Shown piece by piece: positions 878 through 48,092 of a DNA stretch of 57,300 nucleotides. The stretch covers positions 1-57,300 of IMG/VR virus record IMGVR_UViG_3300030521_000001, one strand, 5' to 3'. Source of the stretch: a virus. The notes beneath the pieces were generated by a model that made no database searches, had not been told where the DNA came from, and was given only the letters and a program-made list of their open reading frames with translations. The translations under genes and the position numbers were made by a program. Numbering within the stretch: the first letter of the stretch is position 1; each line of letters opens with the position of its first letter.

Positions 878-3800
878 ATGCTGAAGGCGCTTAAGTCCAT
901 CCTGTTCGGGGCGATGCTGGGGGTGATCATCCCTAGTCTGGCGTTTGGTCAGGCTACTCTGTTACCGGATGCCAATCAGCGGTATCTGAATGATACAGGC
1001 CAGCCGGTAGCCAATGGAACTGTGGGGTATTACATCCCGAACACGCTGACTAAGAAGACCATTTGGCAAGATTCGGGCAAAGTCACGGCGCAGACTAATC
1101 CGGTACTGCTAGACGCCGGAGGCAAGCCCCAGCCGGCAGGGCAGACTTACGGCGACGGGTCATACCGACAAATAGTCAAGGACTCCAACGGCGTTCAAAT
1201 TTGGGACTCCGTCACCACGTCTACAGGCAGCGGTAGTTCGAGCGGAGGGTCGGTGTTTTCGGCAGGGGTGCCAGTGGGCACTATCTTGCCATGGGCCAGT
1301 ACTGCACTACCGACCAACTACTTGTATACGGCAGGTCAAGCGGTGTCTAGAACCACCTATGCCCAGCTTCTTACGGCGGTCACTTATCAACAAACGATAC
1401 TGTGTCAGAATGGAGTGGCTACCGTATCAGTGACTACTACGGTGAGCGACGGCACTCCTATCGGTGCGCCCATCGAAGCGTCGTGTTTTGCCCCTGGGAC
1501 TATTGTAAGTTCCAAGGCTTCCGGCATCCTGACGCTTAGCACTAATGCCACCAGCAGTGTTTCCACTGGCATTACCGTGTTCCCGTGGGGTAACGGGGAC
1601 GGTTCCAGTACTTTTAACGTACCTGATATACGGGGCCGCGTCCTGGCGGGGCGTGACAACATGAACGGGTCCATCGCCGGGGTGTTGAGCAGCACTTATT
1701 ATTTGACGCCTGGAGGTGTCGGGGTGAACCCTGACGCACTAAACGCTGTAGGCGGCAGTCAGTCCTGGGTAACTACTCTAGCGCAACTACCGACTGGGAT
1801 CAATTCGTCCGGCAGCAACAATCTGACGGTTACGTCTACGGTCAACGGCATTCCGACTAACGCTATACCGACCGCTTCCTTGCCCACTAGCGGAAGTGCC
1901 ACCGGCATTTTAGGCCCAAGTTCCGGTGGGTCACCAGTGGTGGTGGGGGCTGTTACTTCTACCAATACTCAAATAATTAACGTGGCTTCCACCAATACGT
2001 CGGGTTCCCCTCACCCTTCTGTGCAACCAACATTGACCGCCGACCACATCATCAAGGCTCTACCTGACACGGGAGGTTCAGGCTTGACCGGCGTCACTGA
2101 CGGCGTGTTGTACAACAATGCGGGGTCCCCGGGGGTCACGGCGGCTGGTCTAGACGGGCAATTGTTCCTGGGGGTCACGGGTTCGCCGCCACAGATGGCG
2201 ACCATGTCGCAGGATTGCGTCATCACCAATGCCGGAGCGATCACGTGCACCAAGACCAACAACGTAGCTTTCGCGCCTAGCGCTACTACGGACGCCACCA
2301 ACGCTAACAATATCACATCTGGGGTTTTGACTCCAGCAAGGCTGCCCCTGGCTACTAACGCCGCAAAAGGTGCGATGGAGGGGGACACTACTACTATCAC
2401 CTGCGTAGCGGGTGTGTGTACTGCCATAGGGGCGGTGGCGTCGTCGATCGGCGTAGGCACCACCACCGTGTCTACTGCCACTTCGGGCTATTGTCTGACC
2501 GTGGGGGCCACTCTCAGTAATGCCCCTTGTGGCGTTTCCACCCCCCAAGGGCGGCTTACGCTGGCCTCGGGCCAGGCCGAAATGGTCGCCGATGCAGTCG
2601 GTGTTCAAAATCTGTGGTACGCCCCCGACGTAGGGGGCAGCCTTAACTATTTCAACGGCACCAGTGTGGCAGTCTGCAGTTTCACCAGTTCCGCTACCGA
2701 TCAGGTCGGCCTGTTGCTCGCGCTCGGCGGCTCGGCGAATTGGGCAGCCGATAGTATTCATGACGTGTTTGCCTATTGGACAGGTTCAGCCTGCGCACTG
2801 GCGACCCGAGCGTGGGACGCCTCGATGCTGCCCTCGGCGCCCGCGCTGATTACACCGATCGCGACGGCGGTAGTGACCGGCACTACGCCGACAGCGTGGA
2901 CCCGGCCAAATGCAGCGTTTGACGGCACTACGGTTAAGGTCGGCACGTCGTCGGCGACCATTCCGTCCGGTTCGGTCAATGCCAACGCCGCTAACTGTCT
3001 GGGTCAAGACTACGGCGTCGGCAATACCAACACCGTCACACAGCTAGTCGTCACCGCCCCCACGGATCATTTCATCTATGGTAATTTCGGGTTCATTGAT
3101 TTTCAGACATCGGTCTCCTCTGACGGCACGAACTGGTTCCTGACCAACGTAAACTGGATCAACGACACCGCCTTCGGCAATTCCTACACACTACCGTTGA
3201 ACACGACGGGGGTGGGTCCGTGGCGGTTCATCCGCACTTGTTTTGACGGCATGGGGGACACCACCCGGAGCCTGTTCATCGCGCAGATTCAATATTACAA
3301 TGTCACCGCAGCATCTACGCGGCGCTTGGTACGCTACACGGGCGTAGGGCTGGTCAACGACGCAACGATGGGAACTGCCCGGATTAGTTCGTCCTCTACG
3401 ACCAGCATACCACAGTATCAAGGGACCTACCTAGGTTCGATTCACATCGATACCGCGAGTACTGGTCAGATCACTTGCCATGTTCAGTCGTTCGGCGCGT
3501 CGCGAACTTGCGGCATCTGGAACGCGTACCCAAGCACGCAACGATGGATTACGCTGCAGGCGGGTATCTACGATACGGCGAAAAACTACACGGTGACGTC
3601 ACCAGGGTGGGCGGCATGTGAGGGGTCCAGTACTTTTGGTCTACAAGTGTTTACTGGGATGGCGGTCGAGCCGGTCGACGTGTCGGCGCTCCGCAACGTG
3701 GTGCTGAACAGCATAGGCGGCGCGGCGTCCTACGAGTACGGTCTTGGGGTCAACATTGGGTCCAGCACAGCCGTAACTAATTCGTTTTCAGGCACGCAAA

Positions 3801-3991
3801 TCAGCACCAATTTTGATAACACAGGAAGCGTCCATGGTTTGACGGAACGCGCCGAGGTGACGCTACCGGCGTTCGCTGGGTTGCAGTCCGTGACCTGTAT
3901 CGAGCGCAACAATAATGGCTCGAACGGCAGTGTCGTGACCATCACCAACGGCGTGCGCGCGGCCAACCTAAAGGTGCGATACAGGTACTGA
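878..3991 (+). CDS. Tail fibre protein (tail-collar domain, C-terminal discoidin-like carbohydrate-binding region).
   Basis: 1037-aa ORF with AGGA 7 nt upstream of the ATG. Collar-domain signature GTILPW..LPTNYLYTAGQAVSRTTYAQL..GDGSSTFNVPDIRGRVLAGRDN. Fibre N-terminal motif LPDANQRYLNDTGQPVANGTVGYY..TIWQD. Discoidin-like AAFDGTT...FQTSVSSDGTNW. The first 24 aa resemble a Sec signal peptide. Confidence 0.85.
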   Translation: MLKALKSILFGAMLGVIIPSLAFGQATLLPDANQRYLNDTGQPVANGTVGYYIPNTLTKKTIWQDSGKVTAQTNPVLLDAGGKPQPAGQTYGDGSYRQIVKDSNGVQIWDSVTTSTGSGSSSGGSVFSAGVPVGTILPWASTALPTNYLYTAGQAVSRTTYAQLLTAVTYQQTILCQNGVATVSVTTTVSDGTPIGAPIEASCFAPGTIVSSKASGILTLSTNATSSVSTGITVFPWGNGDGSSTFNVPDIRGRVLAGRDNMNGSIAGVLSSTYYLTPGGVGVNPDALNAVGGSQSWVTTLAQLPTGINSSGSNNLTVTSTVNGIPTNAIPTASLPTSGSATGILGPSSGGSPVVVGAVTSTNTQIINVASTNTSGSPHPSVQPTLTADHIIKALPDTGGSGLTGVTDGVLYNNAGSPGVTAAGLDGQLFLGVTGSPPQMATMSQDCVITNAGAITCTKTNNVAFAPSATTDATNANNITSGVLTPARLPLATNAAKGAMEGDTTTITCVAGVCTAIGAVASSIGVGTTTVSTATSGYCLTVGATLSNAPCGVSTPQGRLTLASGQAEMVADAVGVQNLWYAPDVGGSLNYFNGTSVAVCSFTSSATDQVGLLLALGGSANWAADSIHDVFAYWTGSACALATRAWDASMLPSAPALITPIATAVVTGTTPTAWTRPNAAFDGTTVKVGTSSATIPSGSVNANAANCLGQDYGVGNTNTVTQLVVTAPTDHFIYGNFGFIDFQTSVSSDGTNWFLTNVNWINDTAFGNSYTLPLNTTGVGPWRFIRTCFDGMGDTTRSLFIAQIQYYNVTAASTRRLVRYTGVGLVNDATMGTARISSSSTTSIPQYQGTYLGSIHIDTASTGQITCHVQSFGASRTCGIWNAYPSTQRWITLQAGIYDTAKNYTVTSPGWAACEGSSTFGLQVFTGMAVEPVDVSALRNVVLNSIGGAASYEYGLGVNIGSSTAVTNSFSGTQISTNFDNTGSVHGLTERAEVTLPAFAGLQSVTCIERNNNGSNGSVVTITNGVRAANLKVRYRY

Positions 3992-13239: not shown

Positions 13240-13241
13240 GA

Positions 13242-15667: not shown

Positions 15668-15668
15668 T

Positions 15669-28973: not shown

Positions 28974-29104
28974 GCCCCCGACAGGCCCGCTGGGAACTTT
29001 GGTAGTTCCTAAGGTAAGGGTAGAGATAATATCTCCACCCGAAGGCAGGCCCAGACCATAACGGGGCCAAACAACGCCGAGAACGGCGTTCAAACAATCT
29101 CTCC

Positions 29105-29294: not shown

Positions 29295-29432
29295 CTAGTA
29301 GAGATGGTTTAGTTCCAAGCGACGCGGTCTTTGAGGTTCAGGTTCCAGTTCGCGGGGCAGGGGGCTTGCGAAGCGCCGTCCGGCGTGCTCTATTCAGCGT
29401 AGCCTGAACCAGCACTAAGGGTACTTGCGCGT

Positions 29433-29987
29433 GTGAAAAAGCCCAAACCCAAGAAAGCGAAGCCCCCGCCCAATGCCGAGGCAACCGCAAAACTTGCAGC
29501 TTCCAAAGCAGCCACGCAGCCGATATTGTGGCAAAGTGGCATGCGGAAGCGATCTCGTGAGTTGGAAGAATTTTTCCTCGCCGGGTTGCGTAGAGCATGG
29601 TCGGTTTCAAAGTCGGCTCAGGCTATTGGCATTACTCCTACGACAGCTTACGAATGGAAGAACAAGTCCCTTGCGTCACGCCGTGAGGATGGCACTTACG
29701 CCGACGATTTCTGCGTCCGCTGGGTCGGGGCGTACGAGACCGGCGTCGATCGGATCGAGGACGAAGTCATTCGCCGAGCGGTCGAGGGGGTTGAGAAGCC
29801 AGTGTATCAAGGCGGCATTCTCGTCGGCTCGGTCACTGAGTATTCCGACACGTTGGCAGGTCTCGTCATGAGAGGCAAGCGACCAGGTGTTTATAATACC
29901 GAACGCCACGAGCATACCGGCAAGGACGGCGGGGCGATCCAGCACAATTTGCAAATCGAGTTCATCGACGCGAAGGGCAAGAAATGA
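29433..29987 (+). CDS. terS: Terminase small subunit candidate (HTH protein), GTG start.
   Basis: 184 aa, first gene of the late strand. HTH SKSAQAIGITPTTAYEWKNKS, followed by EVIRRAVEGVEKPVYQGG..VTEYSDTLAGLVMRGKRPGVY, typical of small terminases of alphaproteobacterial phages. Confidence 0.5.
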   Translation: MKKPKPKKAKPPPNAEATAKLAASKAATQPILWQSGMRKRSRELEEFFLAGLRRAWSVSKSAQAIGITPTTAYEWKNKSLASRREDGTYADDFCVRWVGAYETGVDRIEDEVIRRAVEGVEKPVYQGGILVGSVTEYSDTLAGLVMRGKRPGVYNTERHEHTGKDGGAIQHNLQIEFIDAKGKK

Positions 29988-30283
29988 TTAAGATCACTAA
30001 AGGCCCACAAGCAGATTACGAAGCCCGGTTTGGTGAAGTTGGAGACGTCGTCGATTTTCGTATCGTGTCGGACTATCACATCCAGACTGACACGATTTTG
30101 ACGCGCTTGGACGTCAAAGTGGACGAGGAACATTGGCATAATGCCGTGTTCACATCCGTACGATTACGCCAGTTGAAAATTCCACAGGTCGGTGTCGATG
30201 GGGCGTGGGGCGCTGGCGCCAATCGGCAAGACCTGATCGAGGCGCTGCGCGGGTTGGTGGACGCGCTGGAGCAAGGCAAATGA
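29984..30283 (+). CDS. Hypothetical protein (99 aa).
   Basis: ATGA overlaps at both ends. Confidence 0.5.
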   Translation: MIKITKGPQADYEARFGEVGDVVDFRIVSDYHIQTDTILTRLDVKVDEEHWHNAVFTSVRLRQLKIPQVGVDGAWGAGANRQDLIEALRGLVDALEQGK

Positions 30284-30777
30284 TTGAACGTCGCAGCATT
30301 CTCGTCGGTTTGGGCGCGCTGTTCGCGGCGCCCGCGATCGTGAAGGCTGCGTCGCTGATGAAAGTGACGCCGACCGAAATCATCAGGGCGCCGAACTACA
30401 ACTATTTGACGGTCGACCAGATCACACGCGAAGCTGTGCGACGGTTCGCAGATTGCAACAAATTCATGCAGGAAATCGACAAACAGTACGCGGAAGACTT
30501 AGCGTTTGCACACGGCGACCAGTGGTGGGCCAGCGGCACTGAAATTGGTCAAGTGCTTCGCATTCGGCTACCGAACGATTACACCGTGAGCGACGGGCCG
30601 GGCTTGTCGATACAGGAACCGAGCGAGCGCTACATATTTGCAATGATGAACCAATCAACCGGTTTGGTTTCGATGTCGGATCAGTTGGCTGCGGCGGCCG
30701 TTGTTGCTGTCGCCGCTCCCGTCGTGGTGCAGAAGGTGCTTGAACAGCCAGTGACGCGGAGGTTCTGGGCCAGATGA
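30280..30777 (+). CDS. Coat-protein N-terminal paralog carrying a Tat-like signal peptide.
   Basis: Internal ATG 30280 (ATGA overlap). N-terminus MIERRSILVGLGALFAAPAIVKA-AS. Then LTVDQITREAV..FMQEIDKQYAEDL....IGQVLRIRLPNDYTVSDGPGLSIQEPSE aligns with residues of the major capsid protein (LTISMITREAI..FLKNLNRQYDNEF....IGSQLRIRLPNDYTVTDGPALSVQDTAE). Confidence 0.65.
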   Translation: MIERRSILVGLGALFAAPAIVKAASLMKVTPTEIIRAPNYNYLTVDQITREAVRRFADCNKFMQEIDKQYAEDLAFAHGDQWWASGTEIGQVLRIRLPNDYTVSDGPGLSIQEPSERYIFAMMNQSTGLVSMSDQLAAAAVVAVAAPVVVQKVLEQPVTRRFWAR

Positions 30778-31337
30778 GAACCGACAACGCGCTCAGCACG
30801 CACCTGGAAGAGAAGAAGCGATCCGAACGCGTTACGATGACGATCGTAAAACCCGCAGGGGTTTGCACTTGCCCTATGTGTTTGCAGCACAAGGAAGCAA
30901 CAGGACACGACCTGATCCAAAATATCAGCATGCGTGAAATTACGGAGTACAAACCTGGGGCAGCCGTCAGCATAGACGACGTCGTATCAGGGCCGGTGTA
31001 TGAAGCGCAGCCTTTGACCCGTGTCAATGCGTCGTACCAGAGTGGCAATGCGCTAGTCGTTGATCCGCTCCATGAAGATCTTCCAGTTGGGATAGTCATC
31101 GAAATTGACAACGTGAAAATGTGGAATCGCACAGCCGATTGCTCAATGACGCGTCTGCGTCAATTTGTTACGACCAGCAAGGCGGGGATTGGGCACACGA
31201 TCCTGTTCCTTTATCCGTCGATTTGGGCGATTAAGGATGACCCGTTGCGTACGGTCGTTGATCTACCGATGAACAAAGCTATCGTAAGACGCGTTACTGC
31301 CGCAGCAATCCCGCTGCATGATGGAGGGGTAAAATGA
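30774..31337 (+). CDS. Coat-protein middle-region paralog (187 aa).
   Basis: YQSGNALVVDPLHEDLPVGIVIEIDNVKMWNRTADCSMTRLRQFVTTSKAGIGHTILFLYPSIW aligns with the capsid segment GQTGPTLVVNAITGTLLVGDIVTVAGTIAVNRVAKSTTGELRQLVILTNAANAATSLNVYPSII. ATGA overlaps at both ends. Confidence 0.6.
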   Translation: MRTDNALSTHLEEKKRSERVTMTIVKPAGVCTCPMCLQHKEATGHDLIQNISMREITEYKPGAAVSIDDVVSGPVYEAQPLTRVNASYQSGNALVVDPLHEDLPVGIVIEIDNVKMWNRTADCSMTRLRQFVTTSKAGIGHTILFLYPSIWAIKDDPLRTVVDLPMNKAIVRRVTAAAIPLHDGGVK

Positions 31338-32881
31338 AGCTGTTTCGTTCTGCGGCAGTGGGGCTTGGCGCTCTGGCTGTTATTTCTGTAGCGGCGTACG
31401 CCGCTGGTTATTTTCCGGGCTTCCCGGTCGTGGGCGGCCTCGCGTATTGCCAGTCCTCGGCCGGCGTCGGTGCGGGCACCGGCTCGTCAACCTTCGCCTC
31501 GACTACGCCCGGCGCGCAGTTTGGACAGGGCGCCGTGGGTCAGGCTGGCACGTTCGCCAACCCGTGTAATCTCGGCGTGAACGTCGGGCCAGCGGCTGTA
31601 ACCGGTTCGGAACTGATCGCGGCAGACACCAACTTGCCGGGTGGGGTGCAGCCCCAGACCGTGCTGGTTCCGACGTCCATCCTTGGCCAGTCGGTCAACC
31701 GCCTGATCGGCGGTGAGTTTACTACCAACCTGGCGCAGCGCCTCTCAACCACCAAGGGCATCGCGTCGCTTGCCACGCTGTCCCCGACCGCAGCCGTCAT
31801 CACGGCTGACCGTTGGTGGGTGATCGCCCCGGCAGCCGGCGTCACCGTCACGATGGACTCGACGGCGGCAACTGCCGTGGTCCCCGGGCTCAACAACACC
31901 AAGGCGCTCCGTCTCGCTCGCACCACGTCCGGTGCGGCGGGCATCATGTGCCTGGGCCAGACGCTCGACGCGGCGGCATCGCAACCGCTGATCGGCAACA
32001 ACGCCGTGTTCTCGTTCTGGGAGTCCAACGGCGCTGGTCAATCGGCCACCAACGGTAACTTCACGGTCAACGTCGATTACACTTCGGCCGCCGACGCTGC
32101 AGCCACCCAGGCCACGCTTGGTTTCGCGGGCGCCAACGGTTCGCTGTTCGCGCTGGGTGACGTCGGTCTGCTGTCGGCCGGCCCTACCAACATGACCCGC
32201 GCCATTGCCGGCGCGTCGGTCGGCACCACCGCTTCGGTGACGGCGGGTGTGGCGACCATCGCGGGCTCGACCACGTGGGCGCGCTACAGCGTTTACGCGC
32301 CGATCCCGTTGACCATTCCCGGCACCACCACGCTGGTTACCTCGGTCAGTGTTTCGGTGTGCTTTACCCCAACCGTGACGACCGCGATTACGACCGACTG
32401 GATCGAACTTGAAGGTCTGCAGCTTGAAGCCAAGCCGTCGACCGCCACGGTTTCGATGCCTTCAGGCGTGATCTCGCCGACCACGTTGGAACGCCGACCG
32501 GCACAGATCGAACAGGCCCTCAGCCAGTACTACTGGTACTACAACTTTGAGAGCCAGACGCTGATCTCGACGGTAGCTTCCTGCGCCAACACGTCAACCA
32601 CCATCATGAACTGCTTCCTGCAGTTTCCGGTGCAACAGCGTCTGGCCCCGGTAGTCAAGTACACGACCGGTTTCCAGGGCTTCACGACGACCGGCTACAC
32701 GGCGGTCGGCGCTTGTACGACCTTGGCGGCGTCAGCGTCCTACGTGACGGTGCCGTCCAGCTTCGGCGTCCTGATCAACTGCACGGCCGGCACGCTTCCC
32801 GCAGCCGGTACGGCGAATCAGCTTACGACGCTCGGCACGGCTTCCGCGACCGGCATCATCGTGGCGAGTTCGGAGCCGTAG
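31334..32881 (+). CDS. Signal-peptide protein with a fibre/receptor-binding-like beta-rich body (515 aa).
   Basis: N-terminus MKLFRSAAVGLGALAVISVAAYA-AG. Ala/Thr/Gly-rich. Motifs NRLIGGEFTTNLAQR, ADRWWVI and IELEGLQLEAKPSTAT...LERRPAQIEQALSQYYWYY recall jelly-roll tail-fibre tip domains of alphaproteobacterial phages. Confidence 0.55.
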   Translation: MKLFRSAAVGLGALAVISVAAYAAGYFPGFPVVGGLAYCQSSAGVGAGTGSSTFASTTPGAQFGQGAVGQAGTFANPCNLGVNVGPAAVTGSELIAADTNLPGGVQPQTVLVPTSILGQSVNRLIGGEFTTNLAQRLSTTKGIASLATLSPTAAVITADRWWVIAPAAGVTVTMDSTAATAVVPGLNNTKALRLARTTSGAAGIMCLGQTLDAAASQPLIGNNAVFSFWESNGAGQSATNGNFTVNVDYTSAADAAATQATLGFAGANGSLFALGDVGLLSAGPTNMTRAIAGASVGTTASVTAGVATIAGSTTWARYSVYAPIPLTIPGTTTLVTSVSVSVCFTPTVTTAITTDWIELEGLQLEAKPSTATVSMPSGVISPTTLERRPAQIEQALSQYYWYYNFESQTLISTVASCANTSTTIMNCFLQFPVQQRLAPVVKYTTGFQGFTTTGYTAVGACTTLAASASYVTVPSSFGVLINCTAGTLPAAGTANQLTTLGTASATGIIVASSEP

Positions 32882-32977
32882 GATAACGGCGCTTTACGAC
32901 CCACCAAATTGGGCCGATTACGCCTAGTCCCCTCCGCACCACAGCGGAGGGGGCGCCGTATTACAAGGAGACGTTCG

Positions 32978-33214
32978 ATGGCCAACCAGCGCGTCGATTT
33001 CACCGAACTCAACAATCCGATGTTGAAGTGGCTGCTGGACGATGGCACCGAGATTTGGTTGAAGGTCAACCTGATGGGTGTCATGCGCACCGACGAGCGC
33101 TTGCCGGACGGCCAGTTCAAGCACGAACTGAGGTTCAATCAGGCAGTGGAGCAGGTCGCACCGGCCGGCGAGATTGACGTTCGCAAACTGGCGGGAGCGC
33201 GCGATGGATCTTGA
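32978..33214 (+). CDS. Hypothetical protein (78 aa).
   Basis: Internal ATG is preceded by AAGGAG at a 7-nt spacing. Confidence 0.5.
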   Translation: MANQRVDFTELNNPMLKWLLDDGTEIWLKVNLMGVMRTDERLPDGQFKHELRFNQAVEQVAPAGEIDVRKLAGARDGS

Positions 33215-33863
33215 CCTGCTCAAGGCCGCCAATTTGGAGCGGTGGGGTCGTTGCGAAATTCTACCCGCGCGCAAATCCGAAGTCCTCAGGACGGTACAGC
33301 GTTTGTGTCTACCCAGTTCCAAGGCGCGTTATCAGGGCGTTACTGATCGTCTGGCCGAGTTCGCGGCACACAGTGATAAGATCGTCGCGGTGCCGTGGTG
33401 GTTTATTGCGATCACCAGTGAGCGCGAGTACGGCGGCCCGCCGCACTGGGACAAGCAGCTTGGGCAGGGCGACGACCTCGACAAGGTGTCGCGTCACATT
33501 CCGCGCGGCATGGGACCTTACCTCGATCACCCCGGCGATACTACGCCGGGCCATGATGCCTGGACGCGTTGTTGCGTCGACGTGCTGATCAACTCTGCGC
33601 CCTACGCCGCGAAATGGAAGGACTGGTCGATTGGGGGCGTGCTGACGTTGTTCATCCTTTACAACGGCGTCGGCTACGAACAGTATCACCACGAACCGTC
33701 GCCCTACGACTGGGGTGCGACCAACATTGAACAATCGGGCAAGTACACGGGCGACGGCCAGTTTAGCGCCAACGTGTGGGACACGCAGATCGGCTGTGCG
33801 GCCATGCTCAAGGCTATGATTGAACTCGACCCGTCGATCGGGCAGAACTTGGGGGTCACATGA
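33204..33863 (+). CDS. Lysozyme-family (COG5526-like) peptidoglycan hydrolase candidate.
   Basis: 219 aa. LLKAANLERW...KARYQGV...VPWWFIAITSEREYG...GQGDDLDKVSRHIPRGMGPY...VDVLINSAPYAAKWKDWSIGG..LFILYNGVGYE....PSPYDW..TN....GKYTGDGQF..NVWDTQIGCAAMLKAMIELDPSI matches my recollection of this rhizobial/phage lysozyme-like family. Confidence 0.5.
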   Translation: MDLDLLKAANLERWGRCEILPARKSEVLRTVQRLCLPSSKARYQGVTDRLAEFAAHSDKIVAVPWWFIAITSEREYGGPPHWDKQLGQGDDLDKVSRHIPRGMGPYLDHPGDTTPGHDAWTRCCVDVLINSAPYAAKWKDWSIGGVLTLFILYNGVGYEQYHHEPSPYDWGATNIEQSGKYTGDGQFSANVWDTQIGCAAMLKAMIELDPSIGQNLGVT

Positions 33864-35311
33864 CGGACCTGATTCTTAGGGCTTGGAAGCTTGTTCTGAT
33901 TTCGGTCATGCTGACCTTGGCGCAACACGCCCATGCGCAAGCACCCGTCAAGGTTCAGACCCCGAGCGTTGTCACCCGGTCCGGCAACACGCAAACCAGC
34001 TATCAGGACGTGGGCGTCGCCAATCCGATGCCAACTTCGGCGGCCGGCCCTTCAGGATTCTTGCAAGGCGTCTCGCCGGCCGGTAACAATTCCCGCGTCA
34101 CGGGTGGCGACCCTCTGCAATTGTTATGGGACGACTTCCGAGGCGGTGGAGGCCCGGTCGGTACCGGCGTGCTGGACACGGTGTTTAATTGGAAGACGCC
34201 GGTTACGGGTGGCACGGGTACGCCGCTGGCCGCCAACAATCAGTTCGGCGCGACCACGCTGGGTTCAGGCACCGGCACCGGGTTTTCGGTGTTGCAAAGC
34301 CAGGAGTCGTTCGCCGGCAAGAACCCCGGCTGGTTATACTTCCGGGGACAAATAAACATCGAATTTCCGGTGTTGTTGAACGCGGTGCGGTTCTGGGGTT
34401 TCGCCACGTTTCCGACGACGCCTACTACGGCCGCGCCTTACACTGACGCCGAGGGCTTCGAGGTTGGGCTGGACGGGCACTTGCGTGCAGTGACGGCGGC
34501 CAGCGCGGACAGCGTAGCAGCCGGAACGCGCCTAGTCATAAACGACCTGTCGTTGCCTTGCCCGGCCACCGTCACGTTGACGGGATCAGTGGCGAGCGGC
34601 ACGAACACGTTGTCGACGGCCGGGTCGTCTTTCGCCAACAACGTGTTCCCATTTCAACTCGTCACGGGCCCTTCCGTTCCGTACGCCACCACTGTTACTG
34701 CGGTGAGCCCGACCGGCGTCACGCTCAGTAACAACGCGACCGGCACCAATTCAGGTCTTTACACCTTCGCCGGGCAATGTGCGCCTAATCTGGTGGGCCA
34801 AGTAGCCCAGCCTCAGGACGCCAGTGTTCACGCGTACACCAAGTTTCCCAAGGGCGACCGCATCTTTTGGGCCATCGACGGCGAAGACAACATCGTAGCC
34901 CAGACTTACAACGGCGCCCCGGGACCGGGCAACAACGCCTTGCCCGTTGGCTATGCGGCAATAGGCAACACGCCGACTTCTTCCGCGACCGTCACCGTCA
35001 ATCAGGCCGTGGTTGCGGACACTGCGCGCAATCCTTATTTCAACGGCCTGGTGCGTGACCGGACCATCACCTCGGCGACCGGCGCGTCGCAAGCGTTCTT
35101 TGCCGCTAATCTGCAGCGTCATTCGCTGAACATCGTGAACACCGGCAACGCCAACTGCGGCATTAACCCGACCGGGGGCACGGCGGCGATCGGGGGCGCT
35201 GGTACTTTAACGTTGTCTGCGCTAGGCGCGTACACCCCAAAGATTCCGCCACGTAACGCCGTCACCGTAATTTGTACTGCTGGACAACCGATCTATGGGG
35301 ATGAAAATTGA
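33860..35311 (+). CDS. Signal-peptide protein (483 aa), beta-rich, unknown function.
   Basis: N-terminus MTDLILRAWKLVLISVMLTLAQHAHA-QA. Gly/Thr/Ala-rich. ATGA overlap with the upstream gene. Confidence 0.55.
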   Translation: MTDLILRAWKLVLISVMLTLAQHAHAQAPVKVQTPSVVTRSGNTQTSYQDVGVANPMPTSAAGPSGFLQGVSPAGNNSRVTGGDPLQLLWDDFRGGGGPVGTGVLDTVFNWKTPVTGGTGTPLAANNQFGATTLGSGTGTGFSVLQSQESFAGKNPGWLYFRGQINIEFPVLLNAVRFWGFATFPTTPTTAAPYTDAEGFEVGLDGHLRAVTAASADSVAAGTRLVINDLSLPCPATVTLTGSVASGTNTLSTAGSSFANNVFPFQLVTGPSVPYATTVTAVSPTGVTLSNNATGTNSGLYTFAGQCAPNLVGQVAQPQDASVHAYTKFPKGDRIFWAIDGEDNIVAQTYNGAPGPGNNALPVGYAAIGNTPTSSATVTVNQAVVADTARNPYFNGLVRDRTITSATGASQAFFAANLQRHSLNIVNTGNANCGINPTGGTAAIGGAGTLTLSALGAYTPKIPPRNAVTVICTAGQPIYGDEN

Positions 35312-35844
35312 AACGCTCTATTAAGGTCCTAAGCCCGGTATTGCTGGCGGCGTTAGCAGTCGTGGCACTGCTAATACTGAAAGCGCACGCAGCCGACGTT
35401 ACTAACCCGACTGTAGCCCCAGCAGGAGCCACTTTTCAATCGTCCATTTCCGGCAACGGGCTGCAACCTGTTGGGACGGCTAGCACAACCTTTGTCATGA
35501 TGGGGTTAGGAACTACTTGTAAAATCACCCCAACTAGCAATGGCAGGGTGCATTTCACCATCGGCGGCAACATGTTGAACGCCACCAATGGCATGACCAC
35601 TAGAGTGGAATTGGCGTTTGGGACTGGTGCGGCGCCGGTTAATGGCGCCGCTGTGACCGGTACCGTACTAGCTGGGCCAAGAGGTTCTATTGGCGCAAGT
35701 TCCGAGTTGCATGGTTTTAGCACTGATGCCGTCGTCACTGGCCTGGTCCCAGGCACTACGTATTGGTTCGATACTCCCATGAACACTGATTCCACAGGTA
35801 CGGCTTCTGTTACTAACGTCATGTGCAACGCCGTCGAGGGTTGA
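35308..35844 (+). CDS. Signal-peptide protein (178 aa), TTG start.
   Basis: TTGA overlap with the upstream stop. N-terminus MKRSIKVLSPVLLAALAVVALLILKAHA-AD. Beta-rich body. Confidence 0.5.
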   Translation: MKRSIKVLSPVLLAALAVVALLILKAHAADVTNPTVAPAGATFQSSISGNGLQPVGTASTTFVMMGLGTTCKITPTSNGRVHFTIGGNMLNATNGMTTRVELAFGTGAAPVNGAAVTGTVLAGPRGSIGASSELHGFSTDAVVTGLVPGTTYWFDTPMNTDSTGTASVTNVMCNAVEG

Positions 35845-37202
35845 TGAACGGCCTGAATACATCCAGCCTTACGCGGCCGAGGATTCAATTTCCGGCCAAG
35901 GCGATGTGTCTGTTTCAGCCGGCACCGTACAAGATTTTTCATGGGGGACGCGGGGGCTCGAAGTCCTGGGACTTTGTGCGTGCGCTACTGTCGATCGGCA
36001 CAACCAAGGAATTGTTTATCCTGTGCTCCCGCGAGGTGCAGAACTCGATTGACGAGTCTGTGTACAAGTTGCTGTGTGACCAGATCATGGCGATGGGGCT
36101 TGAGGGTTTCTACACTCCGTATGACACCGAAATCCGGGGCAACAACGGCACCCGATTCGTGTTCGCCGGGCTCAAGAACCAATTCAGGAAGATAAAATCG
36201 TACGAGGGCGTCGACATTTGCGCGGTGTTCGAAGCTAACAACATCGCCGACCCGGTATGGGAAACGCTTGAACCTACCATTCGTCGCGACCCCCCGTACG
36301 GGCCATTCGGCGAGGGGTCGGAGATCTGGTTGGAGTTCAACCCTGAACTGGCGACCGACGCCACTTACAAGCGGTATGTGCTTGACCCGCCCCCCGGCTC
36401 GATCGTGGTGGAGTTGAACTACTGGGACAATCCGTGGTTTCCCGAGATCCTGCGTCGCCAGATGGAGCGTATGAAGGAGAAGGACTATGACAACTACCTC
36501 ACGGTTTGGTGCGGCAAGCCGCGCAAGACGCTCGCGGGAGCAGTTTATGCCAAGGAACTCCAAGCTGCCCTTACCGACGACCCGCCTCGCATATCGCCAC
36601 ATATTCGTCACGACCCCAAGCGAGGCGTCATCGTCATTTTTGACCTTGGTCGGGCCGATACATGCGCCTTGTGGTTCGTTCAGCAAATCGGAATGGACCA
36701 CGCCGTCATTGATTATTACGGTAACACCGGGTTTGACTTCACGCACTACATCGAAGAAATCCGTGAAAAGAAGTACCGTATCGCTAAGGTGATTCTGCCC
36801 CATGACGCTCGACACAAAGTCATATCAGCCAGGTTCTCTGTACTGCAACAGGCACGAGACGAATGGGGAGACGAGCGAGTCCCAAGGCCCTTACCCCCAA
36901 CACCTGCATCAACCCGTATCAATGCTTTGCGGTCCTTATTTCCCAGGCTCTACTTCGCTGAGGGACCAACCCAGGCCGGAGTTCAGGGTCTCACGCATTA
37001 CCAGTTTGGGGTGAGCGACAAGGGCCAGCGCACGGCCGAACCGTTACATAACTGGGCGTCACACCCGGCGAACTCGCTGGAACACTACTCACTCAGCTTA
37101 CAGCCCGGCATTTACGAGCGCGATGACGAACCCACCGATGAGGACTTTGACAATCCGCATGGGACGACCAGTCATGAACAACCGACAGGATGGATGCGAT
37201 GA
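35844..37202 (+). CDS. terL: Terminase large subunit.
   Basis: 452 aa from ATG 35844 (TGATG junction). Walker A-like FHGGRGGSKSWDF; ILCSREVQNSI; FAGLKN; WLEFNP; nuclease-half motifs VIFDLGRADTCALWF and ILPHDA. Confidence 0.85.
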   Translation: MNGLNTSSLTRPRIQFPAKAMCLFQPAPYKIFHGGRGGSKSWDFVRALLSIGTTKELFILCSREVQNSIDESVYKLLCDQIMAMGLEGFYTPYDTEIRGNNGTRFVFAGLKNQFRKIKSYEGVDICAVFEANNIADPVWETLEPTIRRDPPYGPFGEGSEIWLEFNPELATDATYKRYVLDPPPGSIVVELNYWDNPWFPEILRRQMERMKEKDYDNYLTVWCGKPRKTLAGAVYAKELQAALTDDPPRISPHIRHDPKRGVIVIFDLGRADTCALWFVQQIGMDHAVIDYYGNTGFDFTHYIEEIREKKYRIAKVILPHDARHKVISARFSVLQQARDEWGDERVPRPLPPTPASTRINALRSLFPRLYFAEGPTQAGVQGLTHYQFGVSDKGQRTAEPLHNWASHPANSLEHYSLSLQPGIYERDDEPTDEDFDNPHGTTSHEQPTGWMR

Positions 37203-40172: not shown

Positions 40173-40173
40173 C

Positions 40174-46315: not shown

Positions 46316-46951
46316 TTGCCGAGTAAAGACCCAGAAGTTAAGAAGAGAGCGCAGAAGCGGTATCGCGAAAGCGTGAAGGGTCGTGCCCGACGTAAGGTCA
46401 TGAAAGCCGCGTGGGACAAATCAGCTAGGGGCAAAGCTTTAAAGGCTGAAAGCGACAAGAAGTGGAGGAAGACTGCCACATATAAAGCCTTGGCCGCTGA
46501 AAAGATGCGCAACTGGCGGCAGAAGCGTAAGGCTTGGCTCCGCGAAATAAAATCTAAATTAAGTTGCGCCGAATGTGGTTTTGATAAACATCCGGCTGCT
46601 CTGCAGTTTCATCATTTGGGAGACAAAATCGACGGCGTTACCAAATTAGTGTGTAATACTAGTAAGAGTTACGCATTCATTCGGGAAGAAATGGCAAAGT
46701 GCGTCGTGCTGTGTGCCAATTGTCATTTGATCCTACATGATGAAGAGCATGAAGACCGCGTCCGGGCGCGAGACATGTACCCGTGGTCGCCTTCCAAGTC
46801 TGAGGAGAGACTGAGGCCCTCTCCGAACCAGAACGCCCAGCGGGTGAAAAGGCCGGGCATTCGACTTGGAAAAGGTACCTCAAATGGCAAATCAGTTGCT
46901 GACTATAAGCATGATCACGAGGGAGGCAATTCCACTCTTCGTCAACTCTAA
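46316..46951 (+). CDS. HNH endonuclease inserted between the scaffold and capsid genes (TTG start).
   Basis: Basic N-terminal half, then CAECGFDKHPAALQFHHLGDKIDGV....IREEMAKCVVLCANCHLILH (CxxC...HH...CxxCH). The 3' end overlaps the capsid start. Confidence 0.75.
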   Translation: MPSKDPEVKKRAQKRYRESVKGRARRKVMKAAWDKSARGKALKAESDKKWRKTATYKALAAEKMRNWRQKRKAWLREIKSKLSCAECGFDKHPAALQFHHLGDKIDGVTKLVCNTSKSYAFIREEMAKCVVLCANCHLILHDEEHEDRVRARDMYPWSPSKSEERLRPSPNQNAQRVKRPGIRLGKGTSNGKSVADYKHDHEGGNSTLRQL

Positions 46952-48092
46952 CGCTTTCCTGAAGAACCTCAACCGGCAGTATGACAACGAGTTCGGCAAG
47001 AACGGCGAGAAGATCGGTTCGCAACTCCGAATCCGTCTGCCGAATGACTACACCGTCACGGACGGTCCGGCGCTATCGGTTCAGGACACCGCCGAACAGC
47101 AGACCGTGCTCACGATGTCGTTCCAGAAGCACGTCGACGTTTCGTTCAATTCGGTCGACATGCTGCTGTCGCTCGACGACTTCTCGGAGCGTATCCTGCT
47201 TCCGATGATGAACAACCTGTCCGGCAAAGTGTCGGCCAGCATCATGGCGGCCAACGCCGAGGCCCTGTGCAACATCTCGGCCAACCTGGACGGCGCCAAC
47301 AACGTCCTGACGCCGACCGACGCCACTTACCTGGACGCCAAGGCCACGCTGGACATCAACTCGGCGCCCCCGGTCCGACACAAGATCATCAACGACCCCC
47401 GCACCGAGGCACGCGTCGTCAGTTCACTTACCGGTCTGCTCAACCCGTCCACCGCGATCTCGGACCAGTACTACGAGGGCGTGATGTACCGGGCGCTCAA
47501 CGCGCTGTGGTTCTCGGACGCGCTCACCATCAAGCACGTGGCGGGGTCGTTTACTGCGGGCACCGTCAACGGCGCTGGCCAGACCGGGCCTACCCTGGTC
47601 GTCAACGCCATCACCGGAACGCTACTGGTCGGGGATATCGTCACCGTCGCCGGCACCATCGCGGTGAACCGCGTCGCCAAGAGTACCACGGGCGAACTCC
47701 GTCAACTCGTGATCCTGACCAACGCGGCCAACGCGGCGACTTCGCTCAACGTTTACCCGTCGATTATCCCGTCTGCAGGCGGCAACGACGTCCAGTATCA
47801 GACCGTCGTCGCTTCGCCGGCCAACGGTGCGGCGATCTCGCTCTACACCAACCCTGGCGTCACTTACCGCAAGAACTTCCGCTACGTGCCCGAAGCCATT
47901 ACGATGGCGACCGGCGACCTGCCGATGCCCGAAAACAAGATCACGGCGCGGCACCGCTACGACAACGTCTCGATGCGTTACGTCGCGGACTACATCATTG
48001 GGACCGACCAGCGGGCGTCGCGTCTCGACGTACTGTTCGGGTCGCTGACGACGCGTCCGGAATGGGGGTGTGTCGTACCTGACAAGGTCTGA
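46884..48092 (+). CDS. Major capsid protein (P22 coat-protein family).
   Basis: 402 aa from ATG 46884. ITREAIPLFVNSNAFLKNLNRQYDNEFGKNGEKIGSQLRIRLPNDYTVTDGPALSVQD...QKHVDVSFNSVDMLLSLDDFSERILLPMMNNL follows the P22-coat consensus. Followed by a strong terminator. Confidence 0.8.
   Translation: MANQLLTISMITREAIPLFVNSNAFLKNLNRQYDNEFGKNGEKIGSQLRIRLPNDYTVTDGPALSVQDTAEQQTVLTMSFQKHVDVSFNSVDMLLSLDDFSERILLPMMNNLSGKVSASIMAANAEALCNISANLDGANNVLTPTDATYLDAKATLDINSAPPVRHKIINDPRTEARVVSSLTGLLNPSTAISDQYYEGVMYRALNALWFSDALTIKHVAGSFTAGTVNGAGQTGPTLVVNAITGTLLVGDIVTVAGTIAVNRVAKSTTGELRQLVILTNAANAATSLNVYPSIIPSAGGNDVQYQTVVASPANGAAISLYTNPGVTYRKNFRYVPEAITMATGDLPMPENKITARHRYDNVSMRYVADYIIGTDQRASRLDVLFGSLTTRPEWGCVVPDKV

Follow-up and report, generated by a model that had tools for sequence, protein, structure and literature searches.

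The eight-gene cassette that separates the small and large terminase genes of this podovirus is tentatively read (probability roughly 0.45) as a lineage-specific module, expressed late, that supplies auxiliary host-recognition appendages with components destined for the periplasm, not the cytoplasm. At that same level of confidence, its products would undergo oxidation in the periplasm and be added to particles, as auxiliary receptor-binding appendages, once the holin has acted. Three of these products, c4, c7 and c8, are of fibre or lectin type, with predicted cleavable Sec signals and conserved, even-numbered cysteines, and the main tail fibre encoded outside the cassette shares these features. 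The window analysed here is the whole 57,300-nt stretch of IMGVR_UViG_3300030521_000001.

A conserved slot between the terminase genes

Eight translationally coupled ORFs occupy positions 29984-35844, and both these ORFs and their junctions are as the original prediction described. The cassette is bordered at its 5' end by a genuine terS (29433..29987, + strand) and at its 3' end by a genuine terL (35844..37202, + strand). The earlier call of terS was correct: its product matched phrog_4044 'terminase small subunit' (3.5e-22, residues 35-170), weakly matched HTH_23, and shared 49-60% identity with its positional counterparts in seven relatives (L004, L005, L006, L078, L079, L099 and L100). TerL matched Terminase_3 (2.1e-28) and phrog_3717 (1.4e-46), with 68-75% identity in the sister loci L003-L006 and L100. 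ATGA overlaps join terS/c1, c1/c2, c2/c3, c3/c4 and c6/c7, the c7/c8 junction is TTGA and that of c8/terL is TGATG. Because start and stop codons overlap throughout, and promoter and terminator signals of the cassette did not rise above chance, the cassette is a single late transcription unit.

The sole intergenic gap in the cassette, 96 nt between c4 and c5, contains a GC-rich 11-bp hairpin (32927..32954, + strand) within a 76-nt region of -30.9 kcal/mol (z = -3.8; equally stable folds in 0/200 shuffles). Strong hairpins of differing sequence were found at the same place in L100 (z -4.0), L006 (z -2.1) and L004 (z -5.2), and that of L099 was not significant. Hairpins are typical after abundant structural genes, and this one probably serves as a leaky terminator or in mRNA stability.

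The order terS, coat-piece and Tat genes, c4-like gene, c5, signal-bearing beta-rich proteins and terL recurred in at least seven related metagenomic phages; it was kept in L004, L005, L006, L099 and L100, and partly in L078, L079, L068/L069, L070/L077 and L080. The module is thus typical of the lineage, not an oddity of a single genome, and relatives differ widely in the genes that fill the slot. In Pseudomonas phage H66, the nearest cultured relative by terL (36% identity), terS and terL are adjacent. This adjacency supports the original prediction, but the split itself is a conserved slot across the whole metagenomic lineage.

Coat-derived pieces and fibre-like proteins

Coat-like fragments had been predicted in two of the genes, and sequence comparison extends them to three: c1, c2 and c3 each hold a piece matching the P22-type coat protein of the phage itself, with the major capsid gene at 46884..48092 (+ strand; PF11651 P22_CoatProtein, 7.9e-22; phrog_283 'major head protein', 5.7e-49) as the predicted source. 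The 99-aa c1 (29984..30283, + strand), which lacks an export signal, reproduces the C-terminal beta-strand motif of the coat protein (VVDFRIVSDYHIQTDTILTRLDV), its residues 21-44 being 54% identical to coat residues 360-383 (BLASTP, E 9e-5). Homologues lie at the same place in L099, L100 and L005. ORFs of L004 and L100, as well as some members of the c2 family, have a c1-type piece fused behind a Tat-type leader, which connects c1 to c2.

The 165-aa c2 (30280..30777, + strand) consists of a twin-arginine leader (MIERRSILVGLGALFAAPAIVKA, then AS), a coat N-arm/E-loop piece and a C-terminal Ala-rich hydrophobic stretch ending VTRRFWAR. Its family of 47 members, mostly aligned over their full length, matched coat residues 3-74 (hhalign 99.5%, E 1.5e-22); the N-terminus has invariant RR, AP and M, the C-terminus an invariant RR with nearly invariant F and W, and the middle is variable. 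The leader did not match the TAT models of Pfam and NCBIfam, and the hydrophobic stretches of c2, at 15-16 residues, are short for membrane spans. The 187-aa c3 (30774..31337, + strand) is without an export signal. It contains CxCxxC, weakly repeats the C-terminal motif of the coat, and has a region (residues 84-175) that aligned with coat residues 228-322 (BLASTP, 34% identity over 95 aa, E 2e-9). By the layout of the P22 coat, this piece would represent the surface-exposed insertion-domain region. In L078 a single ORF upstream of c4 joins E-loop-like and c3-like parts.

The 515-aa c4 (31334..32881, + strand) begins with a Sec signal (MKLFRSAAVGLGALAVISVAAYA, then AG), followed by a conserved N-terminal module of ~90 aa bracketed by Cys39 and Cys78 and an exchangeable, lectin/CBM-like fibre body. 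More than 200 homologues were found, in which six cysteines are invariant or nearly so and no Pfam domain was detected. The AF2 model (pLDDT 72, with the N-terminus as a single helix of low confidence) resembled tail-fibre and CenC-like proteins in a Foldseek search of BFVD (E 2e-22, TM about 0.6) and, in the PDB, CBM4/27/30 and Fbs1 jelly rolls. The modelled structure is thus a tail-fibre fold, which bears out the 'fibre-tip-like' body of the original prediction. Its first ~100 residues follow the terL relatives (40-66% identity, versus about 14-50% in the body), and the body is 70-96% identical in phages whose N-terminal modules are only 32-44% identical, a mosaic pattern that marks c4 as a putative receptor-binding protein.

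The Sec signal of the 483-aa c7 (33860..35311, + strand) ends LTLAQHAHA, then QA, and is followed by a beta-sandwich body of lectin-like type and, at residues 400-483, a C-terminal domain of 84 aa that contains the Cys433/Cys472 pair; this domain is 62-81% identical across about 30 otherwise differing proteins. The AF2 model (pLDDT 71.5, N-terminus a single helix) matched lectin-type and tail-type phage proteins in BFVD at low TM (E 1e-12 to 1e-5), and an SU10-like phage encodes a full-length homologue with 71% identity in its head-tail module. The 178-aa, beta-rich c8 (35308..35844, + strand), with two cysteines and a Sec signal ending LLILKAHA, then ADVTNP, shares 42% identity with the C-terminal half of a signal-bearing, 280-aa protein whose gene lies just before terL in L005, and weakly matched phrog_6977 'minor tail protein' (E 0.003). 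The c7-like gene of SU10-like phages is likewise followed by a signal-bearing one, with a mature N-terminus of ADVTNP or QDVNNP, whose signal-less orthologue in L097 starts M-ADIENP; the link of c8 to these partner genes consists of position and this six-residue motif. Together, c7 and c8 appear to constitute a mobile pair of fibre genes, on solid homology for c7 and on position and a short motif for c8; similar pairs occur in the head-tail modules of the unrelated SU10-like phages.

Such mobility between unrelated phage lineages, together with the variable slot content and the secreted, lectin-like nature of the proteins, would also be expected of moron or lysogenic-conversion cargo, that is, secreted adhesins or lectins that alter the lysogen surface from a permissive slot. 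This origin is improbable: the genes lack their own promoter and terminator and are joined to terS and terL by translational coupling, variation in the c4 N-terminal module follows that of the phage backbone, and no integrase or repressor was recognised among the scanned ORFs of the window. Furthermore, across 185,579 species, with one genome each, c4 was found only on one 57.9-kb contig, of which the 21.5 kb fetched held phage-type genes only; accordingly, these phages do not show up as prophages.

The two remaining genes, c5 and c6, are without export signals. The 78-aa, cysteine-free c5 (32978..33214, + strand; AAGGAGA upstream of the ATG) is the best-conserved small gene of the module (53-61% identity in L004, L005, L006, L099 and L100) and is always preceded by a c4-like gene; it had no match in Pfam, PHROG, NCBIfam or PADLOC. 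The c6 product (about 219 aa; 33204..33863, or from TTG 33174, + strand) has a probable endolysin-type catalytic domain with an invariant R-E pair, in a family of 2390 cluster representatives at E <= 1e-3, and is a probable peptidoglycan hydrolase. Its earlier assignment to the lysozyme family gains indirect support from PG_binding_1 domains in 6/37 sampled homologues, but not from Pfam, NCBIfam or the PDB, where c6 had no match. No c6 homologue was found by tblastn in any fetched locus, sister cassettes included, and none of the listed cassette ORFs of L004-L006, L099 and L100 resembles it, so c6 is a non-core part of the module.

The presence of c6 would be consistent with an accessory unit for lysis or egress, comprising an endolysin (c6), a spanin- or holin-like c2 and exported beta proteins that modulate envelope breakdown. 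Fusion to PG_binding_1 is frequent in the c6 family, its only match in a phage isolate (a 315-aa 'peptidoglycan-binding protein' of Bradyrhizobium phage ppBjS10J-1) precedes small ORFs in an endolysin-like placement, and the window showed no further recognisable stand-alone endolysin. The N-terminal export signal and C-terminal hydrophobic anchor of c2 also resemble those of unimolecular spanins, such as T1 gp11. However, the five sister cassettes that lack c6 retain c2, c4, c5 and the signal-bearing proteins, most c2 members are without a lipobox cysteine, c4 and c7 have fibre or lectin folds of 480-515 aa that are not those of lysis proteins, and a holin-like gene lies elsewhere (5746-6045; phrog_2359, 2.6e-5). 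A lysis unit is consequently as improbable as lysogenic cargo.

Export signals inside and outside the cassette

Signal-like N-termini, scored by our own heuristic, not SignalP, were present in 4/8 cassette ORFs versus 2/80 elsewhere in the window (Fisher p = 4e-4), in agreement with the predicted canonical signals on c2 (Tat) and on c4, c7 and c8 (Sec). Such signals are not confined to the cassette: the main tail fibre and a 213-aa protein (4378-5019) also bear them. The main fibre (878..3991, + strand; 1037 aa, 16 Cys; Collar domain, 3.1e-10) lies at the tailspike position and has a Sec signal (MLKALKSILFGAMLGVIIPSLAFG, then QATLLP). Its residues 25-110 share homology with the N-terminal parts of cultured podovirus tail proteins; those of Rhodoferax phage P26218 and Pseudomonas phage PAE2 are signal-less, starting M-ATLLPEGKQ and M-TQLLPNGKQ, respectively, with in-frame stops just upstream.

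We argue from these sequences that the predicted signals are real. The main-fibre signal ends exactly at the start point of the signal-less orthologues, and the relatives L089 and L090 retain a signal whose sequence differs. Signal-like N-termini occur in 113/120 c4 homologues (of the other seven, six have internal starts and one is missing just the charged N-region) and in 45/48 c7 homologues, with the charged, hydrophobic and AxA features kept despite unrelated sequences. Signal-less orthologues of the c7-like gene and its partner fill the same slot elsewhere. All five Sec-type proteins of the window have even cysteine counts (16, 4, 8, 4 and 2; core virion proteins, 0-4). The Cys433/Cys472 pair follows signal status, being present in 39/39 signal-bearing versus 0/2 signal-less members of the c7 C-terminal-domain family, although the latter two, in which the pair is replaced and cysteine is absent altogether, are closely related and make this roughly one independent event. 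Counts in the main-fibre family are 16, 8 and 12 in signal-bearing forms versus 3 and 0 in signal-less ones.

The same N-termini might instead be over-extended ORF calls or trimer-bundling structural helices, which would leave the cassette an ordinary cytoplasmic second fibre set. ORF calling always used the first possible start codon, the N-termini were modelled as single helices, and the fibre folds and structural-module contexts are ordinary. Yet good Shine-Dalgarno sequences precede the long, signal-including starts, the main fibre has no alternative start between its hydrophobic region and ATLLP, cysteine pairs track signal status, and the Tat-type RR is invariant in 33 c2-family sequences; moreover, a packing helix would conserve sequence and not merely layout. 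This explanation is very unlikely, slightly more so than lysis or lysogenic cargo. The view of the cassette as a functional module with genuinely exported products accordingly holds at the level of sequence.

Exported proteins as possible virion appendages

The case for a virion role rests on three observations. Signal-less c7-like and c8-like orthologues occupy the same capsid-to-adaptor slot in the SU10-like L097; three peripheral appendage genes switch signal status together, bearing signals in L083, L085 and L096 and none in L097, whereas the core tail genes of these four phages are never signal-bearing; and the exported main fibre retains the N-terminal domain common to tail proteins of cultured podoviruses. 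Ordinary head or tail relatives of the cassette genes, which the original prediction had considered as evidence against it, were thus found in part, for c7 and its partner. Among the roles it listed, unusual virion appendages are favoured over exclusion or a decoy because these signal-less orthologues lie in ordinary head-tail modules, and its premise that virion assembly is cytoplasmic, so that exported proteins are not virion parts, is called into question by our data. Counting against appendages, the cassette proteins do not resemble the main fibre of the phage, and full-text literature searches yielded no precedent for tailed-phage fibres assembled via the periplasm.

The main rival, which we consider unlikely but well ahead of the other alternatives, is that exported, non-virion lectins derived from fibres mask or occupy envelope receptors, excluding superinfecting relatives or stopping progeny from adsorbing to debris, as T5 Llp does. 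In this scheme c2, as a membrane-tethered coat mimic, might disturb incoming P22-type ejection machinery; P22 SieA is described as an inner-membrane exclusion protein (PMC10883804). Masking would accommodate the real export signals, the receptor-binding potential of lectin/CBM folds, and a slot content as variable as that of arms-race loci, which in a related phage includes an Acb2/Tad1-type anti-defence gene. The known exclusion genes llp, cor and lom likewise adjoin fibre genes in late operons. However, orthologues without signals, placed in the same structural slot, could not serve for masking, and the joint switching of three appendage genes also counts against it. Periplasmic proteins of a diderm could not reach surface receptors, no receptor-binding domain is common to the cassette proteins and the phage's own fibre, and expression is tied to the late operon (no separate promoter was detected). 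Furthermore, the sole fibre at the tailspike position is itself signal-bearing, and exclusion would leave the phage without a recognisable receptor-binding protein.

Under the appendage reading, c4, c7, c8 and the main fibre would be exported late in infection, lose their signals and be oxidised to disulfide-stabilised fibres, which would meet the cytoplasm-built particle only after the holin opens the inner membrane. Through its conserved N-terminal module, c4 may then dock on a phage-lineage-specific partner, perhaps the cytoplasmic c5 or the coat-derived set of c1, c2 and c3, docking roles that we purely infer. The c2 protein would leave by the Tat route with c1 and c3 carried as folded partners, be held at the inner membrane by its C-terminal hydrophobic tail, and show a capsid-like patch that holds or templates c4. 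The probable muralytic enzyme c6 would be a gain of this genome's version of the module. Taken together, these results suggest that such phages would mature their host-recognition fibres outside the cytoplasm.

The slot between the terminase genes

The window covers nearly the whole of a phage contig that is 57,314 nt long. Reading along the + strand from position 29433, the small terminase gene (terS, 29433-29987) is followed by eight ORFs (c1 to c8, 29984-35844), the large terminase gene (terL, 35844-37202; Terminase_3, 2e-28), a P22-type portal and further structural genes for a scaffold-like protein, a P22_CoatProtein coat (46884-48092), gp4-like and gp10-like connector proteins and ejection proteins. 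Start and stop codons overlap at every cassette junction except one (ATGA five times, TTGA and TGATG once each), the single intergenic gap being 96 nt between c4 and c5. The ORFs, overlaps and borders that the original prediction had drawn were all found again, and its terS call was borne out by a phrog_4044 match (3.5e-22) and by a position at the start of the packaging and late operon that is kept in seven related loci; the last cassette gene, c8 (35308-35844), which had been named as the competing candidate for the true small terminase, encodes a signal-bearing beta protein. The observation of a cassette rich in exported proteins therefore stands, and its interpretation as an exported module is partly supported by the results below.

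In Pseudomonas phage H66, the nearest cultured relative by terL (36%), terS and terL overlap. Among metagenomic sister phages (terL 68-75% identical) the interval is always occupied and the gene order is the same: terS, small coat-piece genes that often have Tat leaders, a c4-like signal-bearing gene, c5 (32978-33214 in the window; 53-61% identical in the sisters), one to three signal-bearing beta-rich proteins, and terL. This order holds in the related loci L004, L005, L006, L099 and L100, with partial views in L078 and L079, and in more distant phages (L070, L076, L077 and L080) a c4 homologue lies just upstream of terL. The content of the slot is typical of the lineage. In L080, a contig of a Beijerinckiaceae MAG (JARLIW010000323.1), a 75-aa Acb2_Tad1_hairpin gene (PF24729, an anti-CBASS/anti-Thoeris sponge family; 11857-12084) adjoins the c4 homologue within the slot, and a second copy occurs at 147-347 in L097, an SU10-like phage. 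A further candidate member, P0212 in locus L101, was set aside as it appears to be a true coat gene fragment in a broken assembly.

Between 28.5 and 37.5 kb, promoter-like sites (3 against 2.8 expected by chance) and terminator-like sites (12 against 10.3) were at chance level, and an Rfam scan of 28800-37300 gave no match. An independent accessory transcription unit, or moron, was rejected on these counts and on the overlap of the genes with terS and terL. Insertion of a small element such as a microvirus-like or satellite genome was likewise rejected, given the lack of replication and integration genes, the order shared with sister phages and the translational coupling to the terminase genes. 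A nucleotide search with 29400-37300 against 50,697 phage records found no match, and none of c1 to c8 reached threshold against Pfam, PHROG, NCBIfam or PADLOC; matches of c2 to P22_portal (0.053) and of c8 to Pur_ac_phosph_N (0.024) were dismissed as noise. No PADLOC model of known anti-phage defence systems matches any of the eight proteins at E <= 0.01. Sequence searches of the PDB, whether the query was c6 by itself or a profile of the c2, c4, c6 or c7 family, returned nothing meaningful.

Directly 3' of c4, a GC-rich hairpin of 11 bp lies on the + strand at 32927-32954 (z = -3.8). Strong GC-rich hairpins occur right after the c4-type gene in four phages, the window, L100 (about 8305-8336), L006 (about 4364-4392) and L004 (about 9228-9260), the position being kept and the sequence not, and a short U-rich run follows the hairpin in L100 and L006. 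Structural genes with abundant expression are typically followed by a hairpin of this kind.

A phage-encoded GcrA-like cell-cycle regulator (24606-25166, - strand; PF07750, 5.4e-16), together with the only genome match of c4, suggests an alphaproteobacterial host. That match is a 57.9-kb contig in a Beijerinckiaceae MAG, and the 21.5 kb of it examined carries only phage-type genes; a scan of genome contigs revealed no prophage copies of c4 beyond this phage-like contig. Elsewhere on the - strand, an adenylosuccinate-synthetase homologue (11311-12414; PF00709, 4.8e-35) lies beside an HD-domain YfbR-like dNTPase (10356-10958) and near a family-A DNA polymerase (13736-15808), and the gene set at 10356-15808 looks like the PurZ/DatZ/DpoZ set of 2-aminoadenine (Z-base) phages. 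The early region also holds a pair of Pam3 gp34-like (PF23977, 1.7e-41) and Pam3 gp33-like (PF23984, 1e-21) genes (16459-18275, - strand).

Coat-derived genes and a twin-arginine leader

Three distinct parts of the phage's own coat protein are found in the first three cassette genes, one in each. Residues 21-44 of c1 (29984-30283) match coat residues 360-383 (E 9e-5), residues about 40-122 of the c2 family (c2, 30280-30777) match coat residues 3-74 (hhalign 99.5%, E 1.5e-22), and residues 84-175 of c3 (30774-31337) match coat residues 228-322 (E 2e-9). These matches link them to the P22 coat family (PF11651), which the phage's own coat matches at 7.9e-22. However, c1 to c3, with 24-95 coat residues each, have no Pfam match, and no one of them amounts to a whole HK97-fold protein; the pieces are distributed over three genes in permuted order (C-terminal, N-terminal, middle) and are joined to sequences for export and anchoring. 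A CxCxxC motif of c3, VCTCPMC (residues 30-36; window 30861-30881), precedes the coat-like parts of the protein and is possibly a metal site; residues 30-73 of c3 align with coat residues 341-386, containing the same C-terminal coat motif as the c1 match, at a non-significant E of 0.44.

Judged from its relatives, c2 is not a decaying fragment. The family comprises 47 proteins, mostly of 135-210 aa and most aligned over their full length, in which both ends are conserved and many insertions and deletions interrupt the coat-like middle. A twin-arginine leader forms the N-terminus (consensus xRRS[FIL][IL]xGLVALVAAPAIV[KR]A, with RR invariant in 33 sequences), having an S/T-R-R-x-F-L type motif, a weakly hydrophobic h-region and an AxA site, and at the C-terminus an alanine-rich hydrophobic stretch leads into KPVTRRFWxK, directly before the stop codon. 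TAT-signal models were not matched by c2 (Pfam, E <= 0.1; NCBIfam, E <= 1), a weak negative given how short these models are. The pattern suggests a Tat-exported domain that would be held at the periplasmic face by its C-terminal tail, with basic residues at both cytoplasmic ends.

The Tat-dependent, C-tail-anchored bacterial proteins HyaA and HybO (hydrogenase small subunits) and FdnH share this layout of twin-arginine leader, soluble domain, C-terminal hydrophobic stretch and basic residues, and by analogy with such proteins the adjacent, signal-less c1 and c3 could be co-exported with c2 as a folded complex. Unlike them, c2 has neither a cofactor-binding motif nor kinship to redox enzymes, its passenger is a viral capsid fragment, and its hydrophobic tail is short (about 15 residues) in a protein lacking a TAT-signal HMM match; the resemblance is one of topology only. 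The Tat route carries folded proteins and complexes, which would account for the presence beside c2 of c1 and c3, signal-less and translationally coupled as they are, and for the occasional fusion of c1 pieces to a leader. A c1-type coat piece is fused directly behind the leader in several members of the c2 family and in ORFs of L004 and L100, and by the gene-fusion argument c1 and c2 would act together.

In the window and in L004, L068/L069, L078, L079, L099 and L100, a c4-type gene is also preceded, immediately or at close range, by a Tat- or coat-piece gene. We propose, as the weakest part of our model, that the product of the Tat/coat gene would present a capsid-like surface that holds or templates c4; the shortness of the hydrophobic segments and the missing HMM match count against such docking. 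A role of the Tat/coat genes in exclusion, directed at incoming P22-type ejection machinery, is a possible alternative. Maintenance of the likeness to the phage's own coat by gene conversion, or a decoy function for that coat, was rejected, c2 being 42% identical to its own coat against 38-49% to the coats of other phages. Unimolecular spanins combine an N-terminal lipoprotein signal, including a lipobox cysteine, with a C-terminal transmembrane domain; c2 has the hydrophobic tail but an RR-type leader, and as most members lack a cysteine near the cleavage site this assignment was also rejected.

Fibre-like proteins with export signals and paired cysteines

The c4 protein (31334-32881) has more than 200 homologues, all unnamed, with six invariant or nearly invariant cysteines in a 48-sequence alignment. 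Its AlphaFold model (pLDDT 72) matches predicted tail-fibre and CenC-like carbohydrate-binding proteins, with E down to 2e-22 and TM about 0.6, as well as solved CBM and Fbs1 jelly rolls; the BFVD matches (Foldseek) annotated as tail fiber protein come from Burkholderia, Ralstonia, Xanthomonas and Synechococcus phages (E 1e-15 to 2e-22, TM 0.45-0.6). For c7 (33860-35311) the predicted fold consists of lectin-like beta sandwiches, and BFVD matches are to lectin-type and minor-tail proteins (E 1e-12, TM about 0.3), so that both models point to a tail-fibre fold, more weakly in c7. The small, beta-rich c8 is 42% identical to the C-terminal half of the protein just upstream of terL in L005, and c5 (78 aa) has no recognisable family. 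Neither c4 nor c7 had a tblastn match among the 50,697 phage records, and mimicry of the receptor-binding domain of the phage's own fibre by cassette proteins was rejected in view of the absence of intragenomic similarity.

The c4 sequence is mosaic, as is usual for receptor-binding proteins: identity to the relatives by terL is 40-66% over the first ~100 residues and about 14-50% over the body, while its body is 70-96% identical in L068 and L080, where the N-terminal module is only 32-44% identical. The 84-residue C-terminal domain of c7 recurs at 62-81% identity in about thirty otherwise unrelated proteins. Fibre loci of tailed phages are modular, with a conserved N-terminal anchor and an exchangeable C-terminal lectin or CBM-like body, and the cassette works like such a receptor-binding locus, the N-terminal module of the fibre-fold c4 tracking the phage backbone, its body being exchanged horizontally and the c7 domain being shuffled onto a wide variety of bodies. 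From all described loci of this kind the cassette differs in that every fibre-like member has a predicted cleavable Sec signal and conserved cysteine pairs, in lying between terS and terL and not at the end of the tail operon, and in being accompanied by coat-derived proteins with Tat leaders.

Signals were scored by a heuristic of this analysis that asks for a basic n-region, an uncharged hydrophobic h-region of at least 10 residues and small residues at -3 and -1. Sec-type signals are recognised by sequence in c4, c7 and c8, whose N-termini run from a basic n-region through an uncharged hydrophobic core to an AxA-type site, and in the main fibre (878-3991, + strand), a 1037-aa protein outside the cassette with a Collar domain, a tailspike position and 16 cysteines; c2 instead has its RR motif. 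The rule is passed by 113 of 120 relatives of c4, six of the remaining seven starting inside the protein and one lacking only the charged n-region, and by 45 of 48 relatives of c7, with the features conserved in both families and the sequence not. Signal-like N-termini are enriched in the cassette, where 4 of 8 ORFs have one; of the 80 other ORFs of the window 2 do, one of them the main fibre (p = 4e-4).

The register of the signals points the same way. The main fibre leader, MLKALKSILFGAMLGVIIPSLAFG, followed by QATLLP, ends exactly where the signal-less tail homologues of cultured phages start (M-ATLLPEGKQ in Rhodoferax phage P26218 and M-TQLLPNGKQ in Pseudomonas phage PAE2, with in-frame stops just upstream), and a leader, with another sequence, is retained in the closer relatives L089 and L090. 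In SU10-like phages, the small partner protein encoded beside a c7-like gene carries a signal in L085 and none in L097, and the two are 79% identical from the predicted mature N-terminus onward, in the same register. Cysteines follow the signals: the counts in the window's five Sec-type proteins are 16, 4, 8, 4 and 2, against 0-4 in core virion proteins, and signal-bearing orthologues of the main fibre have 16, 8 and 12, against 3 and 0 in signal-less ones. In the C-terminal domain of c7, positions 433 and 472 are both cysteine in all 39 members that bear a signal; the two members without one have I/G or V/G there and lack cysteine altogether. Feature conservation, enrichment, register and cysteines are four lines that argue for functional signals in the cassette, and we consider it very probable that the signal-bearing proteins are exported and function in an oxidising compartment.

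The remaining cassette protein, c6 (33204-33863), belongs to a large and mostly bacterial family (2390 cluster representatives) with an invariant R-E pair, in which no recognised catalytic domain or solved homologue was found in Pfam, PHROG, NCBIfam or the PDB, even when a profile of 37 sequences was used. Of the 37 homologues sampled, 6 have a PG_binding_1 domain, and the only homologue in a phage isolate, Bradyrhizobium phage ppBjS10J-1, precedes small ORFs as an endolysin or lysis gene would. This association with a cell-wall-binding domain and a lysis-gene context in homologues mark c6 as a putative hydrolase; unlike endolysins that join a catalytic domain to PG_binding_1, it would be the catalytic part alone. 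A 221-aa gene upstream of c7-like genes in SU10-like phages was rejected as a c6 counterpart, no similarity being found between the two. A putative lysis region lies at 4008-6045 (+ strand), where no endolysin was recognised; its products are a 123-aa protein that has a single transmembrane segment (4008-4379), a protein of 213 aa that has four cysteines and the Sec leader MKWAIRLLKVAFLVSLFPVAPAGA, followed by QT (4378-5019), a 169-aa cysteine-rich ORF and a 99-aa holin-like protein with two transmembrane segments (5746-6045; phrog_2359, 2.6e-5). After the portal, a 1082-aa cysteine-free protein (40144-43392, + strand), whose C-terminal 240 residues match the endolysin family phrog_7348 (1.2e-12), may be a virion-borne wall hydrolase, and is followed inside the head module by an HNH endonuclease gene (43389-43913, + strand; phrog_99, 8e-45).

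Virion appendages or envelope effectors

The closest full-length homologue of c7 (71%) is found in L096, an SU10-like and not P22-like podovirus, where its gene separates the capsid genes from the head-tail adaptor. The next gene there encodes a small protein that bears a signal and shares its predicted mature N-terminus, ADVTNP, with c8, and the same pair occupies the same slot in L083 and L085. A third appendage gene, between two adaptor-type genes, is also signal-bearing in these three phages (358-1137 aa, with starts of the form …A/Q..C.GQ..AG..CGN, the slash marking the predicted cleavage site), all three proteins having Sec signals and even cysteine counts. In L097 the orthologues of the c7-like and partner genes in that slot, as well as the gene in the third position, are signal-less, and core tail genes are never signal-bearing in the SU10-like phages compared. 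Signal status switches in step across three peripheral appendage genes. The structural region of L083/L084 also contains an inserted IS605-type OrfB/TnpB gene (Cas12f1-like TNB domain; 1412-2590), with homing-type GIY-YIG and Endonuclease_7 genes nearby.

Exported proteins encoded in late or structural operons are familiar from other phages, among them T5 Llp, T1/phi80 Cor, lambda Lom and Bor, and T4 Sp and Imm, which have a signal peptide or membrane anchor, act in the envelope and are sometimes encoded beside fibre genes. The proteins described here might similarly act in exclusion or receptor masking without being virion parts, which we consider unlikely. The known examples are small lipoproteins or membrane proteins, unrelated to fibres and with no known signal-less orthologues in structural slots, whereas ours are fibre homologues of 180-1040 aa that include the only tailspike-position fibre; the module resembles Llp, Cor, Lom and Sp only as exported proteins encoded in late operons. 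An orthologue that lacks a signal and stays in the cytoplasm could neither mask a receptor nor serve in exclusion, it is improbable that three genes of one genome were neofunctionalised at the same time, and the only recognisable tailspike-position fibre is itself signal-bearing and keeps the N-terminal domain of cultured podovirus tail proteins. As the signal-less orthologues make sense as virion appendages and not as masks, we favour virion appendages matured in the periplasm, a reading that we hold tentatively and regard as close to an even call.

Morphogenesis of tailed phages is taught as entirely cytoplasmic. Under the mechanism that we propose, peripheral fibres would be exported and oxidised in the periplasm and would attach to particles once the holin, for which the holin-like gene at 5746-6045 is a candidate, opens the inner membrane. 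Separately made T4 fibres attach to fibre-less particles in vitro, so that the late attachment inferred here is physically plausible. Soil podoviruses of at least the P22-like and SU10-like lineages would then assemble in two compartments, sending fibres through Sec and a capsid-derived docking protein through Tat, forming disulfides in the periplasm and joining fibres to particles after holin action, a reading to which we assign a probability of about 40%. To our knowledge, the filamentous Ff phages are the one established case of virion proteins that have signal peptides and undergo periplasmic oxidation before they are built into the particle: pIII and pVIII are exported via host Sec/YidC, and pIII is disulfide-bonded there. 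However, Ff is a non-lytic ssDNA phage assembled at the membrane, whereas the phage described here is a dsDNA P22-type podovirus with terminase, portal and HK97-fold coat, whose capsid must assemble in the cytoplasm; the module would resemble pIII and pVIII only as exported, oxidised virion proteins.

Full-text literature of incomplete coverage yielded no account of tail fibres with signals or of capsid fragments with Tat leaders in tailed phages, an absence that is not proof of novelty, and we know of no precedent for a Tat-exported capsid fragment. Beyond the displaced cassette, our analysis exposes fibre proteins that are probably exported and disulfide-bearing as a genome-wide trait that crosses lineages of tailed phages. 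If fibres are indeed exported, oxidised and added after permeabilisation, Sec, signal peptidase, DsbA/B and Tat would be determinants of infectivity, and disulfides would explain the stability of the fibres in soil. Signal peptides could then not rule proteins out as virion components in viromics annotation, and engineered receptor-binding proteins could be made in the periplasm. The signal-bearing and signal-less orthologues are ready-made experimental pairs, and even if the proteins are not virion parts they would represent a new class of fibre-derived exported phage proteins, accompanied by a Tat-exported capsid fragment.
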